Notes under the pieces: generated by a model
Told to the model about the DNA's origin: nothing
Seen by the model: the letters and a program-made list of their open reading frames with translations, nothing else
The model's database searches: none
Made by a program: the position numbers and the translations under genes
Assembly: GCA_964016885.1 (NCBI GenBank)
Contig: OZ024743.1
Coordinates: 54,312,001-54,376,000, forward strand
Length of the DNA: 64,000 bases
Direction: 5' to 3'
Origin: Eledone cirrhosa
Lineage: Eukaryota
Shown: positions 2,741-61,871 of the stretch, in pieces
Position numbering within the stretch: position 1 is the stretch's first letter
Layout: each line of letters opens with the position of its first letter

Positions 2741-2940
2741 TAACAAAGGAATTGTGGTAAGGAACCAGATGGACCATAACGCAACAGAGTACTCAATACT
2801 TAGGGTAGTAGAGTGGGAAATAGGAAAAAAGTATGACCCCCGACGGCAGAGATCAAGCCGTTTCGACGGCTATTTCTGGACTGAGTCCAGAAATAACCGT
2901 CGAAACGGCTTGTGCTCTGCCGTCGGGGTCATACCTTTTT

Positions 2941-2945
<5 letters not shown>
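2741..2945 (+). repeat. (TA)n-embedded ~190-bp repeat with terminal cruciform palindrome, copy 1
   Basis: Shares TGTGGTAAGGAACCAG.TGGACCATA.CGCA...AGTACTCAATACTTAGGGTAGTAGAGTGGG with copies at 6871-7032 and 14071-14257. The 3' ~125 bp form an inverted repeat. Confidence 0.85.
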
Positions 2946-2977
<32 letters not shown>

Positions 2978-3347
2978 ATACTTGGGGAGGGTCATATTTG
3001 TGTAATATTGCCAGAATTATTAACAGAACACACTCACTGTTTGGTTGGTTTCGCTTTTCGCTTCTGTGTCTTTTATATCGGTAATCTAATTTATTCGGTC
3101 CTCAATGTTGCCATTGACTGACCAACGGTCAAAAATAATACAGATACAATATAGACACAAACACATATATATAGTTTATCATAAATCTTTCGTTGCACAA
3201 TGGCAACATCGTCAATGGTGCTATTGTTTCCTCCTGTTGCATTTTATTTTCTACGCCATCTTTATTTAGTCTGTTTTCGTCCTTTTAGTTCCTGAGAAAG
3301 ACCCAGTGTTGGTCTATCCTTTCACCTATGCTACGAGCTGTCTGTTG

Positions 3348-4139
3348 TCATGTTGTCATGTTTCTGCAAGTACCCTCTGTACATCTTATGCTATAGACTA
3401 CGTTTCTAGTTTTACAGTTTATCCGGGGGTTTACCTTAGATATGATACATTTCCTATTAGTACAGTGGGTTCTCTTAAAAGGGTAGGTTTTGCTGATTAG
3501 GGATTTTATGGTGGTTCCTGGCTTTTCTACCACCTTAATCTTTAAGTGGGTCTTTCTCAGGGCCTTTCTACACTGGGTAGCTAATTTCCCTCCAGGGTTA
3601 GCGTCCACAAACATGACACTCTGGTATCTCTGGTTGTCGTACCATGAGGTGGCTTTCCCTATCTTATGTCTAGCCCTATCTAATCTATTCCATGATTTGC
3701 TCCTGTATAATGGGCAAATTCCTTTCATGTCCAGTTCTATGAGGGTCTTATACTTCTCCGTGGCTCCTTCGTATACTCTGACTCTGTCTCTTTGGTTGTA
3801 GCCAGAGAACTGCATGCGGTTGATGAAGTGTTGGATGTGTCTTTCCATTTCTGTTGGGTCGCACATGCTGGACACGTTCTTCATCACTCGTACCAAGTCT
3901 GCGATCAGAATATTAAACTTAGGACTACTGGACATGGCTGAGTTTTTGAGTATCAGGTATTTGGAGGCCATGGGTTTAGCATAGTGTGAGTGGAGAATTT
4001 GGGCTCTCTCGTCTATAGTGTTAATCCTGAGTTCCGTGTCTAATACAGGTAGTCTATTGTTAGGGTGTTTGGAAGGGTAGTCGATAGTTACAGTTATACT
4101 CTGGTGTATGGAATTAGCTATCTGCTGGATGCTTTCCAT
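3348..4139 (-). pseudogene. PLE RT thumb/linker and start of GIY-YIG endonuclease
   Basis: LPVLDTEL, YAKPMAS, MQFSGY, LYRSKSW, MFVD..PGGKLA, IKVVEKPG, C...C...C, NVVYSIRC. Confidence 0.85.
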
Positions 4140-4233
4140 TGTGCTACGTTCTAAATCAAACTAGTGCTCTCTTGTGGGGATGTTCTTATAACTATATTGA
4201 TATCGTCTACGTAACGAGAGTATATGATGAGGT

Positions 4234-5229
4234 CTATGGAGCTCTCATTAAGGGGATCTTTAACTCTTCTTTCCCACCATACGATAAAAAGGTTGGCACG
4301 TCACCAGCTATGCTGACGCCAATGGCTGCTCCCTCATTTTGGGTGTAGATCTTCTCGTTGAACTTGAATATGTGGCCCTTTAGGGTAGTTTTGATACTAG
4401 CCCCTATTGCATGTGCGACCATTTTTCTTACCTGATCATTGTTTTGGGGGGTCCGTATAGCTTTGGTCCACCCAATCCACCTTCCCATGGGTGTCTTTTT
4501 AGCCATTGAGGTTATGGTGGGGGGTCTACCTCTTATGGGTCTACTGGGGCAGAAACGTATAAGGTCATGGCTGTCTAGGTAGTCAGTGTCGTAGGTAAGT
4601 CTAAGTAGAAGGCCCAGTTCATCTGTGTCGACGTCGCAGAACTCCACCTCACTCTCAATGATCATCTCCACACATTTTCCCACAGCAAAATCAATGTTAA
4701 TGGATGGGTAAAGTGATACCACATCCATGCTGCCTATTATGCAGTTGGATAGGTTCCTATTTTTGTTTCACTCACTGATTCTGCTGAGGAGGTCCTCTGT
4801 ACTCTCACATACATCTGGGGACATCTTGATTATGGGGCGTATAACCATTGACAGGAAGTAGGAGATCCTGTAGTTGCTAGCAATATTTGCTCCGCATACA
4901 GGTCTTGTTGGTGGTCCTGTTGTCGGGTCGTCGACTGTCTTGTGGTCTTTGCTGAGCCCATACAAGGGTGGTATGCCATTGTTAGACGCCTGGAAGTTGT
5001 TGGCAGTGCGTCTGCTTGGCTTTAGGATGTCGGTCCACATCATCATGTGAGCGTTGAGGATTTTCTCTCTCCCATCATGTATTTGCTGTGTAATTTCGCT
5101 CGTGTTGGTGATGTGGGGTTGCATAGCCTTGATGTAGTTCGGCATGCTATCTATTGACATCCTACCAGACTTATCCGTGGGTAGACATACTACCTCACCA
5201 TCCCGTGTGCGCTGCTTGAGGCTAATCAA
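4234..5229 (-). pseudogene. PLE reverse transcriptase, motifs 1-B
   Basis: ORFs 4768..5229 and 4234..4728 are in the same frame, separated by one TGA (LLSRISE*NKNRNLSNCIIGSMDVVSLYPSI). Confidence 0.85.
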
Positions 5230-5351
5230 GCCTTCTACAGGTTTCCTCCCAAGTTGTTGGGCCTCTGGTCTGCTCTGTCTCTTAGTATACCGGTCTACTA
5301 TTTGTTTAATCTTATTTCTAGCTATAGTGAACTGTGCCTCTGTCTCGTCAT

Positions 5352-6194
5352 CTATTTGTTGTGGTATGCAAACTCTTTATTAAAGGGTAACCTCGTAGGA
5401 TAGATATTACCCATCTTATATGTTTTGTCAGCTTGGTTGAAGAATAGTTTCTCTAAGGGGTTGTCATATCTATCGTCATAGTTGTGTGTGTTGCTATTAT
5501 TGTTATTATGGTGGTTGTTGTTGTTCCTATCATTAGCATTATTATTATTGTTATGATTGCTAGACATATTGTTGCTGTGATTGTTGTTTTCTTCACCGTT
5601 ATTGTTGTTGTTACTGTTATTTCTACCATTGTGGTTGTGACTTTTATTATGTTTCTTGTTTTTGTTGTGTCTATCATTAATGTTGCTACATGTATTATTT
5701 CTATTATTACCACTGTGGTTGTTGTTGTTGTTATTCGTATTGTTACCGTTATTACTACTGTGGTCGCTGCTGCTGTGTCTGTAGTTAATGTTTCTATTAT
5801 TATTATTATTGTGGTTGTTGTTGTTGTTCTGTCTATCGTTAGTATTACTACCATTATTACTACTTCTCATTCTCCTGCTATTGTTATTGTTATGACTATT
5901 ACTATTATAGCTGTTATTTCTATACTCAGAGTTATTGTTTATATTACTACTATCGTTATTATTGTTGTTGTTGTCCGTATAGTATTTGTTGTTGTTTACT
6001 TTTGCATTCCAACGTATTTTTGTGAAACACTTTTCCAGCTGCGTTTTGCACTCAATAGGGTTAATCTTTTTGTAGATGGCAAATTTTGGTGGTAGTCGCA
6101 GGATTTGTTGTTCTTGTTCACTGATTAAAGTGTTCCCATAAATATTTACTGTGTGGTCATTGGTAAATTCTTCCAGTAGTTTTACATCAGTCAT
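5352..6194 (-). pseudogene. PLE N-terminal ORF segment containing an in-frame Asn-rich (AAC/AAT)n expansion
   Basis: MTDVK...[18 protein letters not shown]...FTKIRWN is a typical PLE N-terminal motif, followed by ~170 Asn-rich codons and then PTRLPFNK. The part of ORF 5352..6605 upstream of ~6250 is microsatellite. Confidence 0.7.
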
Positions 6195-6251
6195 ACGGAT
6201 ATTGTTGATGTTATCTGGGTATTTTTGAGAACATTCTATTTTCCTTTCCGT

Positions 6252-6302
<51 letters not shown>

Positions 6303-6435
6303 CGTTTGTGGGGGTGAGACAGTACTCGACAGTACTGAGAGTACTCGATATATGGGGAGATGTAGAGTAGATCTAGAAATATGGTAAATCTCCAGCGTGG
6401 GGCCGAAACCGCATTTTATATATATCTGTATATAT

Positions 6436-6807: not shown

Positions 6808-6870
<63 letters not shown>

Positions 6871-6872
<2 letters not shown>

Positions 6873-7031
6873 AACCAGTAAGACCCCGACGGCTGAGCTC
6901 AAGCCGTTTCGACGGCTAATTCAGCTCAGCCGTCGGGGTCTTACTGGTTCCTATTACCCACTCTACTACCCCAAGTATTGAGTACTTTGGTGCGTTATGG
7001 TCCACCTGGTTCCTTACCACATTTCCTTCGT

Positions 7032-12863: not shown

Positions 12864-13234
12864 AAAAGGTAAACAGAAATAACAACACAATCGGTACAGT
12901 ATATGGAAGGTATATATTAGGTTAACGCTTGATATAGCAGGAGTAGGGTCCTAACGTTTCGGACGCTAGTCCTTCATCAGAAGAAAGAATGAGAAATAAA
13001 ATAGATTAAGGGGACGGGTGGGATGGAATTGGAAAAAAATGTCTTTAGATAAAAAGGAAGATGAGGTTGGAAAGATACAGGGAGGATTGGTTGCATATGG
13101 GGGGGGGGGTGCAGAGGTTGGAGGAAGCGCTTGAGAGTAGAATGGAGCTGGCGGAGAAAACATTTGAGATTGGGCATATTGAAGGTACTAGGGTGGGAGT
13201 GAAAAATAGAAGGCTGCGAAGAATGTAGTAGAGG

Positions 13235-14070: not shown

Positions 14071-14072
<2 letters not shown>

Positions 14073-14254
14073 CGGAAGAAATGTGGTAAGGAACCAGGTG
14101 GACCATACCGCACCAAAGTACTCAATACTTAGGGTAGTAGAGTGGGTAATAGGTACGAGTAGGACCCCGACGGCTGAGCTCAAGCCGTTTCGACGGCTAG
14201 TTCAGAATTAGCCGTCGAAACGGCTTGAGCTCAGCCGTCGGAGTCCTACTCGTT

Positions 14255-14257
<3 letters not shown>
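14071..14257 (+). repeat. (TA)n-embedded cruciform repeat, copy 3
   Basis: Near-perfect palindrome at 14149-14258 with nested GACGGCT/AGCCGTC sub-hairpins. Confidence 0.85.
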
Positions 14258-14289
<32 letters not shown>

Positions 14290-14327: not shown

Positions 14328-14540
14328 TCTAGAGAGGGTAACATTCCTGAGATCCATGGACGAGTTTTCTCCAGCGGTCTCTGTCCCTCATTATCGCTGC
14401 CATGTCCTGCGTCTCCAAGAGACCAGTGTATGTCCTTAGGACATCAACATACGTTAACCTCGGTCTTCTTCTTCCAGTGTGTCCATGCAGGGGCTCCCAC
14501 AGGTGCACTAAATGCAGTGTCAACTCTGGATGTCGGTGAG
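14328..14540 (-). mobile_element. RTE-clade LINE 3' end fragment
   Basis: RHPELTLHLVHLWEPLHGHTGRRRPRLTYVDVLRTYTGL...DRDRWRKLV. Confidence 0.7.
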
Positions 14541-20111: not shown

Positions 20112-21579
20112 ATCGTCCAGAGTCTAATTATTCCCGATAGATGTCGCTCTGCCAATATTTGCCGCCATTTTGTAAAACCTGGTGTTTTGTAAAACTTGGG
20201 CGGAGTTTTCTACATGAAGCACAGCAATATTGTGTCAATTAAGAGAGGTATTTACCTTCCTTGTGGGGTATCACAACATGCATCTGTTGCCATGCCATTT
20301 CACTGAGAAGACTACAACAACAGCAACAACACCAGTATCAACAGCAAAGTCATTAACTACAACAACACTGGCAACATTACTAATAATAACAATAACAGGC
20401 GTCCTCATCAGCAAAAACAACAACAACAACAACACTAAAGTCATTAAATATAAGAACACTAGCAGCAATAATAATAATAACAGACATCCTCATAGACGAC
20501 AACAACAACAGTAACAACAAAAACAACAACAACAGCATTTATAACAACTAACAGATGAACCTCCGTGAGAAATAGAAAGAAAAATAAATAATTGTTTAAA
20601 AATAAGAAGGAAAAAATAAAGGGAATGCTTCTCTCTCTTTGAAACAACATTACGTTGTCTTGATAAACTTCGCTCCGGTTTATAAATATTTCAAACGTCT
20701 TCTATTACACTGAAGCCATTTTGTTGACCCCCGGGACATCAAATCCCTCCTACTGAATACAAACACTTCGACGTCTGTTTCAACAGCCAACAACCAGGCG
20801 TTCGTATTTCCTGTGCTATGTATAAACATTAACACCCATCGTGCTACACGGAATGACATTACTAAATGAGCAGAGGGAGGGAATGCCAAAACCACATTGC
20901 TTTTTTTTTCCCCTTTCTTTCTTCAAGTTATGATAGTTCTAAAATGCTGCTTCACATTCTGGCTTCTGTTACTCCCAGCATACAGGATGCTCTAATTTGT
21001 TTTCTTCTTAAGTGGAAATATATATATAAAAAAAATACTTGGGGTATATGATAAAATAGAAACGGATGGGCTTTACTCTTGTAATATAATCTATATTTGA
21101 AGTGAATGTTGTAACGTGAGAAATGCTCTCAGTGCACCACTCGGCTGTCTGTTTTCTAGTCCCGATTGTAGTAACCATTTCAGTTCATATACATTGCTAA
21201 TATCTTTGAAAGATGGATAATCGTTATAACATCCATTTTTCTCACTCATACCGGGTTTGGATGAACAAATCTGAACCACAAATTAATTTTACTGCCTCAA
21301 TGAGGTCAGACAACATCACTAATGTGTGTGACCTTGTGTGATTATATATTCTTGATATACTAAACACCACTGGTATATACTGAGACAACGGCCTGGCATC
21401 ACACAACTCTGGTGAGCATACATGAAATAAATTCCGTGAACAATTAATAATTATTTTCTGTAACCTAGGACTAACGGTCAAAGTAGACACTAACTTCTCT
21501 AAGGCTAACTACCTAGACCTAAACTACAGATTCTTAAAAGCTAACTGCTAAAACCTAAGTACATGTTCCATAAGGTAAA

Positions 21580-22250
21580 TTAAAAGTTAATATACATTAG
21601 CATAGGCTCGTAATGTTTCGAAATCTAGTCCCTAACATAGCCGCAGAATATCTAATTTATCATTCTCTTTGAAAATATTTGATAACACAGCCCCCTATTA
21701 AAGTAGTGCTTTCCTATTCAGCAGCTTCAAAGATAAGATTCAGTATACACAATATACCTTTCCATAAAATAGAAATAGGAATAAACCTCGGGAATTATCT
21801 AGTTCACACCCCTTTTCTATCTAAATGTAATAACCTATCTAAGCAAAAAAAAATTTGAATTAATAGCCAAATATGTCCTCCACAGGACAGAGATAGTAGA
21901 ATCTTCAGTAGGAATTCCATTGTGATCAGCTATCCTGTGGCCCCTCCATTAAGTCAATGATAACTGTAAAAACCCGGATGCTCTTGCCAAAGAACGAATG
22001 CCTATTGCAGCAGGCTTGTAACATACATCGATAATATAGGAAGATGATGTTACACCCGAGAACCCCATTTAAACAGTTGGTGGAAAAATAAATGTGGAGA
22101 AATGCATGAGAATTAAAGGATAAAAAGAGTGCGTGCACCAAAGGATCTATCAAATGAAGGCTTTACCAGTGAAGAAGGTAGAATGCTCCAGAGCTTAAAA
22201 TATTATAAAGAAATTTTGAGGAGCTGTTTGCATTTCAAAAAAATATTTGC
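21580..22250 (+). mobile_element. Highly degraded Penelope-like element fragment (thumb-linker-GIY-YIG)
   Basis: Broken-frame remnants resembling S.FKDKIQY, F.PPF..NV.T.L.K.F..LI.K, RIFSRNSI.ISY.C and CLLQ, ENPFKQ. Confidence 0.45.
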
Positions 22251-25080: not shown

Positions 25081-25121
25081 GCATAACTGAGAGTTTCGTA
25101 GACTAAAAACCTCATCAGGTG
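25081..25121 (-). ncRNA. Degenerate hammerhead motif
   Basis: CAC-CTGATGA-GGTTTTTAGTCTAC-GAAACT CTC AGTT-ATG: core intact, stems I and II eroded. Confidence 0.4.
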
Positions 25122-47257: not shown

Positions 47258-47430
47258 TAGGTGGAACCAGTTTTAAACTATTTAGACCATTACCTAACAG
47301 AGTACTCGATTCTTGGGATACTAGAGTACAGCTATATTATAAAGAGACGGGACCCAACGCCTCAGTTCTTGCCGTTTCAACAGCCTGGAAATAGCCGCTG
47401 AAACGAAATGTGGCTCAGCCGTAGGGGCTC

Positions 47431-47433
<3 letters not shown>
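47258..47433 (+). repeat. (TA)n-embedded cruciform repeat, diverged copy 4
   Basis: GACCATTA..AACAGAGTACTCGAT.CTTGGG...TAGAGT...GCCGTTTC...AAATAGCCG..GAAACG...GCTCAGCCGT.GGGG. Confidence 0.6.
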
Positions 47434-54611: not shown

Positions 54612-55329
54612 TATATGTCCACTATTAGGTATGTATCAAATCTCGGTATAACCTACCTTAACGAAGGCATTGTTATAATATTTGGCACCCCATATAAACG
54701 ATGTTTTCATTAGCGGGTAGTTTATAAATTCTGGGCATGACTCCATTAAATATAGACTTAATAACTGCCTTAGGATAGACATAGTTTATCTTGGCCTAGT
54801 GAAAGTTTCCATTAGGCTTATGGTTGGGGTGGTAAAAGCCAATTTGAAATTCAAGTATGATATTTTTCAAAAACTGCTCCTTTTTTTGCAGTATCGTTTC
54901 CAGTCTATGTTGCTATAGCTATAAAGTGTGAATAGAGCATCGATCCTATAATGGCTATCCACCATATTACAGAATTCCTTTTCAATATGGTAGAGAATGT
55001 AATTTCCCACGAGATCAATGACTTGTGTGGAGTCAATTGATTCCATGATAATATCAAAATCATTTAGTTTATCTCTTCTTGTCCAGTATTTATTATTGAA
55101 TTCAACTATAGTTGTCCGAGCAGAAAGTAAGTATTATGTCAACTTCGATTTTACTTGCTTCAGTATTTTTCATGTCAAGAATTGGTGATATATTAAGAAG
55201 TGTACGAGATTTAGAGAAATAGTAACTGAAGGTATCTTCTTCTTCTTCTTCTTCTTCTTCTTCTTCTTCTTCTTCTTCTTCTTCTTCTTCTTCTTCTTCT
55301 TCTTCTTCTTCTTCTTCTTCTTCTTCTTG

Positions 55330-56222: not shown

Positions 56223-57876
56223 GCGTGTGCGTGTGCGTGTGTGTGCGTGTGCGTGCGTGTGTGCGTGCGTGTGTGTGTTTATGTGTGTGTTTGTGTGTGT
56301 GAGGAACACTGAAAACGGAAAGTAAAGATCAATTCTTAATCAGCTTATCATTTTACGACCGTCATGATATAACGATACAGTGACTAATTGATAATAGTTA
56401 TGTAACGCCTTGTTATTACTCACGATACACCAGATCCATCTTACGGTCTTCATCAGAAACAATTTTATCTCTAAATGTTGACTTTATCCGATTCATTATA
56501 TTTTCACCTACTCTGCCTATTTCTAAATTTGATGGGCAAATCAGTTTGACTGAAGGTTTAACCTCAAAATGGTTAAATGATCCTTTAAAATAGGGGGATA
56601 TCGTTTTGTTCTACTTTCAACTTTTTAAAACTAATGTGGTAATTTTTGTAAAAGCAGCGAATTGGCGGAGTCGTCAGAACGTCGGATAGAAAACTATGCT
56701 GTATTCGTTTTGGCTTTCTGCTCTCTGAGTCCAAATGTCGCTGAGGTCAACTTTGCCTTTCATTCATTCCAGGTCGATAAAAAGGCATCAATCTAGTATT
56801 GGAGCCGATTCTTCCTCTATATCTTCTTTTCATTTCCATTCTCTCACTCCCTCTATCTTTCTCTGGAAGAAATCTGCTGTATTCAGCCTTGGAGGAGGAT
56901 AGGCTTCGCTGTGTTTAGTAATGCTATAGAAACGTCATGTGTCAAATCGGCGTCCCTACGGCTCCATCAGGAGTTTCATTGTTCTTATTGGGCTCATTTA
57001 TAATCATTTTAACAAGTCGCTCCTTAAATGTACCTTGTTTGTTATTGCCCAATGGAATGAATTTTAGGGAGTTTGAATAGCTGCTTAAAGCCAAGTTCAT
57101 TTTCATCATACAGACCTTAAGTGTGCATCGGTCAATTGTATGAATGAGCTAGCTTTTTGTAGCATTAGTTGATGTACTCCGTTTTTCCCGGGATGTTTTT
57201 TAGTCGCAAATTGATGTAGAATTTCTCCATTATTTAGGTAAACCACCGTTGACAACTGGCTGGAGCATCAGTTAGGTTTTGTAGATTTTTTAATAATCTG
57301 GGCAAAATCCAGATTCAACACTCAATACGATCACGTGGTTTACATAGTGAAATGGAAATACTGTGCAAACCAAGAATTTTTTTATATATATTACATTAGT
57401 ATTGTAAATCAAGAAATATAATTTTATTCGAGTACTGAATGCAGTTTGTGCTCAGATTGTATAAAATCTCCAAGACTTAACATTTTGCTTCACACAGTTG
57501 TCGAACGTTGACGGGGGTTACACACAGAATGGACATACACATGTGAACATATACATGTACATAGAAAGAGCGAGCGAAAGGGTGAGGAGGAAGCGTGGAT
57601 AGACGTGTAATACATACGGCGAAATATACTTAACGATATGCCCCAATACATACACATATATACAAATATACACACACCCTCACACACACACTGATACATA
57701 CATTCATACACACATATATATAGAGAGATAGATATATGTATACATGTATCCACACGACAAGCGTCTATATGTAAAATAGCAAAAAAGAAAACTAGATGAT
57801 AAATAATGGTTGACAGATGTGTTTTTTTTCCGTAAAAGTAAATCAAATATGTTAAAAGCTGGTTCACATATGTATG

Positions 57877-60778: not shown

Positions 60779-61871
60779 TTTCTTTATTAGCCACAGGGGC
60801 ACAAAAGAAGGGGACAAATACAAAGGGGGAAGTTTACATACAATAAAAACGTGTAAAATGTTATCACAGATGGAATTTAAAAGTTAGTCGATTTTCCCCA
60901 ATAGAGGGAGACAGTTTATATGGGTAACACAGACCCCCGAAAAAAATGTGCAACCCTCATCTCCAGGAGTACGAAGAGCTTGTACTCCTTTCCTCTCCTC
61001 CTCCTTTTCCTCAACCTACAGGCTGATATAGAGAGAAGGCCCATTCACTCGGGCCATTCTCGCCACTTTCACCCACCTTTCATAAAACTTGCTGGGGTAC
61101 AGCACCTCTCTCTCCATCCTGATTCTTCTTCCAAAGTGGTATTTGAAAAAAAGAATCAGTTGTTGGCCGGAGAGAAAGGTGTCTGACCTCAGCCCTTTCA
61201 ACCTTGTCCACCATACAACCTCTTTCGCCATAGCTATCACACAAAGGAAAACCGCCTCTCCTTCGTTTTTGAAGGAGGGTGGCGGTTTGATCATGACAAT
61301 GGACTCGGTGGTCAACTGGATTGGTCCCACCCGCGACAATAGTCGTTCTACATAGCCCCACAGGTCAGTGACGCCCGGGCAGTGTATGAATGCGTGCGCG
61401 ACGGTTTCTTCGTCTCGCACGCACCTCGGACAGATCTTTTTTGCAGGGTCCCTGCCCGGGCGCCCATGTCTGTAGAGCTTGTCTCGAACTGGTAGAGCTC
61501 CTCGGTAGCACTGCCAGGCCAGGGACTTTTGGAAGTTGTCCATCGGTCCTGGGCGGAAGGTCCTACCGAACAGACTGGCCAGTTCATCTTCCTCCACGCC
61601 CAGAGTTTCACCGAGCGCGTCGTCGCACTTGCTGCGGACCAACCCTCTATAGAATGACGAAGTGGAGTCTCCACTGATCGCCGGGTCCGCCTGCCAGAGG
61701 GCTGTGAGCGCCTGAGCACATTCGATGTGCCAGTCGCCCATTTTCCTCGGTCTCTGCTTGACCCAGGACTGCAGCTCGGTCAGCGAGACGAGTCGTGGGA
61801 AGGCTCGCCTCACGAACGGGGCCCACACCGGTTGTCCGGTGAGGAATACGTAGAGATGCCGCAGCCTGAGC
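60779..61871 (-). mobile_element. Tx1/L1-clade LINE 3' end, 5'-truncated
   Basis: Open ORF with a zf-RVT/CCHC motif, 3' UTR with AATAAA, (GATA)n on both flanks. Confidence 0.85.
61016..61828 (-). CDS. Tx1/L1 ORF2 C-terminal fragment (zf-RVT zinc-binding domain)
   Basis: LAWQCYRGALPVRDKL...CPRC..DEETVAHAFIHC...LW...AKEVVWWTR. The frame is uninterrupted but 5'-truncated. Confidence 0.8.
   Translation of the reverse strand: MWAPFVRRAFPRLVSLTELQSWVKQRPRKMGDWHIECAQALTALWQADPAISGDSTSSFYRGLVRSKCDDALGETLGVEEDELASLFGRTFRPGPMDNFQKSLAWQCYRGALPVRDKLYRHGRPGRDPAKKICPRCVRDEETVAHAFIHCPGVTDLWGYVERLLSRVGPIQLTTESIVMIKPPPSFKNEGEAVFLCVIAMAKEVVWWTRLKGLRSDTFLSGQQLILFFKYHFGRRIRMEREVLYPSKFYERWVKVARMARVNGPSLYISL

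Follow-up and report, generated by a model that had tools for sequence, protein, structure and literature searches.

A 190-bp hairpin in Eledone cirrhosa is the shortest and commonest insertion form of a Penelope-like retrotransposon inserting into TA repeats

A stretch of 64,000 nucleotides from Eledone cirrhosa (contig OZ024743.1, positions 54,312,001 to 54,376,000, hereafter the window), which lies in a microsatellite-rich genome of 3.0 Gb, carries four copies of a repeat of about 190 bp, most of which is one long palindrome. What kind of element leaves such a repeat, and how does it come by its hairpin? The original prediction, made from the sequence alone, held it to be an independent non-autonomous element whose hairpin was either regenerated at each mobilisation or selected as a recognition structure. 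Inspection of the sequence placed all four copies where they had been predicted, each flanked by (TA)n tracts. We found that the 190-bp hairpin is the shortest and commonest insertion form of a Penelope-like element (PLE), a retrotransposon that inserts into TA repeats, and that the repeat is a stub of a PLE we regard as practically certain.

A genome-wide search and a look for longer parent copies had been suggested as checks, and both were productive. Exact-pattern counts, which are lower bounds, gave at least 30,669 tail cores and at least 15,251 short hairpins with both inner arms exact genome-wide and, since the reversed control patterns gave 0 matches in the same genome for tail as well as hairpin, the repeat is present far beyond chance. 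When the part of about 80 bp next to the palindrome, described as a unique 5′ part, was used alone as query, 6 of 30 loci continued into shared sequence instead of turning back, and the suspected link to PLEs was borne out, as the longer copies run into a PLE open reading frame (ORF) and carry a whole U3-A8 hammerhead. The PLE insertion at locus L081, for example, comprises an inverted arm of about 630 bp, a 5′-truncated ORF, a 3′ untranslated region (UTR) of 1,125 nt and then the 78-bp tail. In tandem parent copies the tail continues to an ATG about 95 nt later and, because it thus runs into the ORF, the predicted orientation is antisense; the 80-bp part exists as described, but the sense of the element is the opposite strand and this part is its 3′ tail. 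Long copies that are continuous with the pseudo-long terminal repeat (pLTR) or with the ORF occur in each subfamily checked, which speaks against an independent non-autonomous element, and the subfamily of copy 1 has long copies of its own, with 1,536 full motifs. The features by which PLEs are recognised, namely pLTRs in partial tandem, an inverted 5′-truncated copy and a tail at one end, are all present. In a sample of 99 copies anchored by their tail and taken from the first 100 matches listed for one contig, with an exact 30-mer required, 96 tails abut (TA)3 or more; 74 copies are short hairpins, 7 extend far upstream and 18 are other forms, which include hairpins that are very short or decayed, and arm-mapping on these copies still misses some inverted arms. 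Short copies exceed long ones by about 10 to 1. At L081 the PLE has landed in the A/TA tail of an L1/Tx1-like long interspersed element (LINE; 3319-5874 of that locus) which has an 851-aa open frame.

The parent unit is about 3.5 kb and has one ORF of more than 700 aa with reverse transcriptase (RT) and, at its C-terminus, a GIY-YIG endonuclease, an equipment that speaks against the HUH or rolling-circle recognition structure once considered. Locus L088 has a 701-aa open frame, in which the YIG motif carries one substitution, and the AlphaFold2 model of its protein (pLDDT 92) found telomerase RT as its top matches in Foldseek, with TERT at ranks 1, 2 and 5. Sequence searches of Pfam and PDB with the parent protein gave no match, and among 8,000 scored candidates 877 were related to the L088 protein at E<=1e-20, the closest of them without names; the atlas neighbours of the parent protein carry HTH_animal, GIY-YIG and RVT_1, with PF01541 in 26-50% of members. 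An alignment of 114 sequences conserved the Hydra motifs and the VIY..YIG, R, H, E and N columns of GIY-YIG. The parent has RWR, DKT, CNCPDGSIC (a CxCX5C linker), CNLC (CxxC) and CKH (CxH) and lacks CCHH. Since these motifs and the (TA)n target match the description of the Hydra clade in the section on these elements in PMC8557442 (RWK/DKT, CxCX5C linker, CxxC/CxH around E and N, no CCHH, (TA)n targets), we assign the parent to that clade with high confidence, on motifs and on a comparison by eye with published reference sequences. A first reading as Neptune-like was dropped, as the motifs fit Hydra. With the Hydra-1_Obim, Hydra-1_Amil and Penelope-13_HM elements presented there it shares the single ORF with RT and C-terminal GIY-YIG, RW(K/R), DKT, CxCX5C, CxxC/CxH, lack of CCHH, (TA)n targets and a 3′-end hammerhead, and with Penelope-13_HM also the inverted 5′-truncated copy; by eye its endonuclease stretch is similar to the Hydra alignment printed there. 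The tendency of the clade to less than 3 kb, a general and not a diagnostic one, is not followed, the unit reaching about 3.5 kb because of its 3′ UTR of 1.1 kb, whereas the Hydra consensuses in PMC8557442 span 1.1-3.0 kb and the usual tail has 30-40 bp against 78 here. As far as tested the Hydra clade gains a new member in this family, set apart by eye from Hydra-1_Obim, the printed hammerhead of which is unlike that of the parent; a Dfam or Repbase entry may exist.

We numbered the element on its sense strand from the A of AGTCCAG (+1). In a stub, one arm carries the 78-bp tail and the end of the pLTR, the opposite arm carries the pLTR end in inverted orientation, and the pLTR is reduced down to 61 bp. 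Two fixed outer ends, +139 and +61, are separated by 78 nt, and at each of them a TAT of the parent merges into the target (TA)n; 47 inverted arms start exactly at +61 and 4, in whole-palindrome copies, at +139/140. The inner ends fall between -5 and +8 in 61 of the 99 tail arms and in 44 of 61 detected inverted arms, and because arms begun at +139 and at +61 end alike, the stop is tied to position and not to length. This edge lies in loop II of the hammerhead. Summed contig depth, which conveys shape and not copy number, has a step of about 20-40-fold at +1 and a second step at +139, and as this shape was seen in the contigs of two separate runs, the edge is not an assembly artefact. Copy 1 is a plain case: its tail (sense +62..+139) occupies 2743..2819 on the minus strand with its end abutting (TA)n, and is followed by the tail-primed arm (2820..2882, minus strand; sense +1..+61, identified from the sequence and the parents) with the stem II 3′ strand, GAAA, stem III, GUC site and stem I 3′ strand. 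A single base at 2883 (G on the plus strand), which differs from the parent base at sense -1 (T or C), joins this to the inverted arm (2884..2945, plus strand; sense +1..+61), which has GAAA at 2902-2905 and a predicted cleavage site after 2924 and ends TTCCTAT into (TA)n.

The centres of the hairpins vary. There were 30 kinds among 44 hairpins, in agreement with the prediction that the hairpin is regenerated at every insertion, and the tail arm was longer in 22 copies, the inverted arm in 30 and neither in 9 (n = 61). Centres carry microhomology, A/T stutter (poly-A at the edge), templated inserts and losses from either arm, and the junction of L061 holds 155 nt of foreign DNA. The commonest recurrent junctions account for 6 and 5 of the 44, the first of them spanning at least three subfamilies. 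Twenty long loci chosen as opposite-facing pairs mostly have the same head-to-head layout with ends near +139 and +61. A GGAGTC variant that seemed confined to the right arm (9/30) was due to query bias and occurs in either arm in other samples.

In order, the parent hammerhead has stem I (ACCCC), the core UUGANAA-G, stem II, whose loop is 38 nt long, GAAA, stem III, UC and GGGGU, so that the conserved core, GAAA, UH and three stems of a Type I hammerhead are present. The UUGANAA core occurs in 49 of 68 parent motifs, in which N7 is G, A, C or U and the remainder is fixed, while the other 19 combine C3 with A8, a mismatch, and to judge by sequence may be dead. Pairing holds in 91.9% of cells as against 30-55% in slid controls, and the motif is supported by two sister families, 2 and 3, which keep the core on different stems. 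Because short copies stop inside loop II, stubs hold only the 3′ half; the half hammerhead that had been noted is thus genuine, but it is a truncation of a whole U3-A8 motif in the parent, which may be self-cleaving, and what occupies the CUGANGA slot as a mirror image is simply the other arm. Type I hammerheads in the pLTR with a long helix II and short helix I, and opposite-strand motif pairs from truncated PLEs, are also described for PLE hammerheads and non-LTR retrozymes (PMC4209133, 10.64898/2026.07.22.740005), the first of which reports the U3-A8 variant from Schistosoma Cercyon; retrozymes are tandem units with whole ribozymes, whereas stubs are dispersed, inverted and without the core. 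The Hydra hammerheads presented in PMC8557442 are C3-G8 with loops of 3-10 nt, in contrast to U3-A8 with a 38-nt loop II and a stem III of 5-6 bp in the parent. A C3-G8 core upstream of stem III was also tried; of its 22 pattern matches the 20 examined were chance flanks or junction inserts, the real core being U3-A8.

How, then, do so many copies come to end at one edge? At diagnostic blocks of the two arms (n = 70), 45 were identical, 23 had other, mostly single-base, differences and 2 carried different recurrent alleles, whereas random drawing of arm alleles would give 68% discordance; the arms match, therefore, because both copy one template. The predicted complementarity of arms within each copy stands, but it is imperfect (102 of 2,961 positions, or 3.4%, differ in 78 hairpins), and the selection invoked for it is not supported. 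The arms are also coupled: 13 tail arms pass +1, and in all 8 of them with a visible inverted arm this passes too; L182 is one mixed case, and opposite pairs hold 40 of the first 100 pass-through arms by manual count. A stop fixed in position and coupled between arms points to a property of the RNA, namely its 5′ end. We thus consider it quite probable that two cDNAs run off an RNA end, and our favoured overall model, to which we give a probability of roughly 0.6, takes this end for the start of transcription. The endonuclease would cut both strands at (TA)n and RT would start internally at +139 and +61, by analogy with PAc (Poseidon of Anolis carolinensis) in vitro, where, according to PMC11167929, the tail is bounded by two internal RT starts, and cutting and extension affect both strands. 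A cDNA would be primed at either end of the cut (TA)n; the two would be copied from one RNA up to its 5′ end, where both run off, and end joining would unite the two separate cDNA ends head to head. The stop at the edge would be a real RNA 5′ end, most likely a capped transcription start; a TATA-less internal promoter is described for Penelope in PMC2377424. Long and tandem copies would come from a minority RNA extending upstream of +1, either by read-through or as a hammerhead-made circle, and a circular template is among the proposals for hammerhead-bearing PLEs in PMC4209133 and 10.64898/2026.07.22.740005.

For hairpins with both arms at +1 (n = 3,522) C comes next in 926 arm ends and T in 240, where the parents have A or G. 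The context is TT-A-GTCC or TC-A-GTCC, which we take to be initiator-like. A reverse-transcribed cap would leave an extra C, and the excess of C is no more than suggestive of such a trace. In family 2, about 10 of 23 stops by eye, in a small sample, lie within 5-9 nt of stem I, just upstream of the core and not in loop II, and since these stops fall elsewhere relative to the hammerhead, the fold does not set the stop site.

Several observations weigh against the favoured model. Near-full-length copies with a direct 5′ pLTR (10 copies, from 23 parsed of 25 loci) all pass +1, with ends from -104 to beyond -890, so one mRNA starting at +1 cannot template all copies and a second, longer or circular RNA has to be assumed; the same 10/10 tell against a stall or a strand jump of the plain kind, and on their account the simple form of a retrovirus-like strand jump at +1 as source of the long copies was discarded, as all pass a second time. 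Only 13% of arm ends show C, and C-led inserts are often templated from the arms, so that C need not be cap. Most arms reaching +1 add a few templated nucleotides (with A in first place in about 60 of the first 100 listed), which makes the edge ragged from -6 to +1, and no match to a downstream promoter element (DPE) was found at +28..+33. The arms of L156 come from two subfamilies, which means that two RNAs can serve; recurrent junctions (6 and 5 of 44) could hide inheritance from short masters; and the 99 copies are first-listed exact matches of a single contig. As to the ribozyme, there are 0 compensatory pairs among 26 sequences of the family, an Rfam search of 4 loci found no hammerhead family at E<=10, minimum free energy (MFE) folds gave the three-way junction in only one of two, and arm ends have no clear excess at the GUC site (9/160 at +39..+46), which is in line with uncleaved RNA as template, as used by PAc (PMC11167929). 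A strict division between two templates, in which capped linear mRNA would yield strong-stop hairpin stubs and hammerhead-made circular or read-through RNA alone the full-length and tandem copies, we put forward tentatively, as somewhat doubtful; if true, stubs would fossilise the transcription start and its cap, and PLE integration would be double target-primed reverse transcription.

Among the rival explanations the best survivor, though an unlikely one, keeps the parent and the two cDNAs and makes the RNA 5′ end at +1 an endonucleolytic cut, the work of small-RNA slicing or of a nuclease acting in loop II. It accounts equally well for the fixed edge, the arm coupling and the ten long copies that pass, which would derive from uncut RNAs, and ragged ends in a U-rich stretch suit it; the excess of C over T and the initiator-like context across subfamilies suit a capped start better, both being weak points. 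We consider it improbable that the first strand loops back to make the second arm, the fold-back of the original prediction. Such self-priming would explain why the arms nearly always share their subfamily and sometimes private changes (L072, L152, L154), and short templated snap-back inserts do occur at centres; in simple form, however, it has against it that the excess length may be on one arm or the other (22 vs 30) and may amount to hundreds of bases, that unpaired centre sequence is found in both orientations, that the second arm has a fixed end site and that junctions capture extra DNA, as with the 155-nt foreign insert of L061, or unite arms from two subfamilies, as in the chimeric L156. 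The private changes common to both arms of L072, L152 and L154 may be template-inherited or due to later arm-to-arm conversion. Still less credit is due to a stall of RT at a structure, be it the folded hammerhead or a bound protein, instead of an RNA end; the edge does lie within hammerhead stem-loop II, where a sub-hairpin is predicted in the copy-1 type, but none of ten long copies stops at the same sequence on its second pass, the arms are coupled, and the stops of family 2 have another position with respect to the fold. The weakest proposal, a very improbable one, is that short copies spread from short hairpin masters mobilised in trans by a PLE or an HUH/Helitron-type enzyme, which the 10 to 1 ratio of short to long and the few recurring junctions would suit and which founders on 30 centres in 44 copies, on one junction shared across several subfamilies, on long relatives of each subfamily examined, on the requirement of PAc for RNA beyond the tail on the downstream side (PMC11167929), which stubs lack, and on the failure to see an HUH partner or Helitron ends.

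The model of two cDNAs that run off a transcription start resembles PAc further in AT-rich targets, but PAc belongs to another clade, its start site is reported as non-homologous to the cut DNA while both ends here lie at a target-matching TAT, and the joining of inverted copies is left open in that account (PMC11167929). The Penelope of Adineta vaga, as presented in PMC3846280, is alike in head-to-head inverted pLTRs, an optional tail on one arm, junction palindromes and an Inr-like pLTR motif; there, few copies were explained by self-priming on an antisense template, whereas the statistics here favour two cDNAs, and the sample leans against simple self-priming including that model. Published descriptions of PLEs already include inverted copies truncated at the 5′ end, a bias to (TA)n, tails and hammerheads (PMC8557442 and PMC3846280). 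In the literature searched we found no description of a dominant short double run-off class with a sharp edge, and the section and table on Hydra elements in PMC8557442 make no mention of a dominant short hairpin class. PMC8557442 lists the formation of tandem and inverted PLE structures among the open questions, and PMC11167929 does not settle it.

Earlier models of PLE integration rest on few copies, and the more than 15,000 independent junctions of one young family allow such models to be counted against each other, so that the copies would record how a poorly understood class of elements integrates. If transcription does start at the edge, then promoter, the two RT start sites and perhaps the cap can be read off the genome itself. 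Divergence between arms could date insertions as LTR pairs do. Miniature inverted-repeat transposable elements (MITEs) and derivatives of Helitrons/Helentrons and Replitrons are likewise short, very abundant and hairpin-forming and occupy TA-rich sites. Compared with these, most stubs are without a pair of terminal inverted repeats and are continuous with an RT-encoding parent, and instead of the fixed internal sequence, conserved termini and DNA mobilisation of such elements we found that centre and 5′ extent vary. Repeat libraries will nevertheless mis-file stubs as MITEs, short interspersed elements or microRNA hairpins, and Rfam gave sub-threshold microRNA matches to the repeat. Tens of thousands of palindromes of 100-125 bp are seeded in the genome, from which putative cruciforms or double-stranded RNA could form.

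Of the remaining copies in the window, copy 2 (6870..7031, plus strand, called minus in the original prediction) has tail and hairpin; its palindrome exists as claimed, but sequence and fold make it asymmetric, the tail arm stopping near +27..+30, that is about 27-30 nt short of the usual edge, and the inverted arm near +7. Copy 3 (14072..14259, minus strand) has tail and hairpin with 95-98% identity to the parent 3′ end. Copies 1-3 each fold as one long hairpin (DNA MFE -54 to -71 kcal/mol), and the outer-arm pairs that had been quoted are all in the sequence. Copy 4 (47258..47433, minus strand) is a real, old and diverged relative of the same layout, matching at E=1.6e-9 a profile made from 57 young copies alone, and the reversed window gave no match to that profile.

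A short copy of family 2 lies at 6302..6420. This older sister family (also L281-L329) shares the tail motif and has stubs of tail plus inverted arm, the arms stopping near stem I; its U3-A8 hammerhead is compact, and its link to an ORF is weak (L286, L324); family 3 (L069, L199) has a U3-A8 hammerhead with different stems. The tail motif ACTCTA..N..GAGTAC is common to window positions 2814, 6368, 6960, 14143 and 47327, and is a candidate RNA signal for RT binding or initiation; by eye, similar words stand at the ends of coral and sea cucumber Hydra consensuses among those printed in PMC8557442.

The window holds further PLE remains. At 3300-6250 (minus strand) there is a broken canonical-type PLE ORF with DKSG, RT and, C-terminally, a GIY-YIG with internal cysteines, and a long Asn-rich insert near its N-terminus is like the N-rich inserts of Adineta Penelope described in PMC3846280. 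It was considered as the parent and rejected, as BLASTP gave no similarity to its RT piece and tblastn no match there. Minimal C3-G8 hammerhead-like motifs of other PLE families lie on the minus strand at 91-114, 12957-12980, 25094-25118 and 29412-29435, the pattern having 9 matches in the window against 2.8 expected. Decayed fragments at 54700-55130, 56485-56598 and 21258-21746 are weakly similar to the parent ORF. In another long hairpin, at 34050-34190, (ATT)n links the end of a common repeat to an inverted copy of itself, and a similar 47-nt word occurs in the parent 3′ UTR (-567..-517) and at 8 places in the window. A short repeat adjoins copies 1 and 3 (2400-2580 and 14340-14500) and resembles what we take to be the 3′ end of an RTE-type LINE, and an L1/Tx1-like LINE piece (zf-RVT) lies at 61016-61870.
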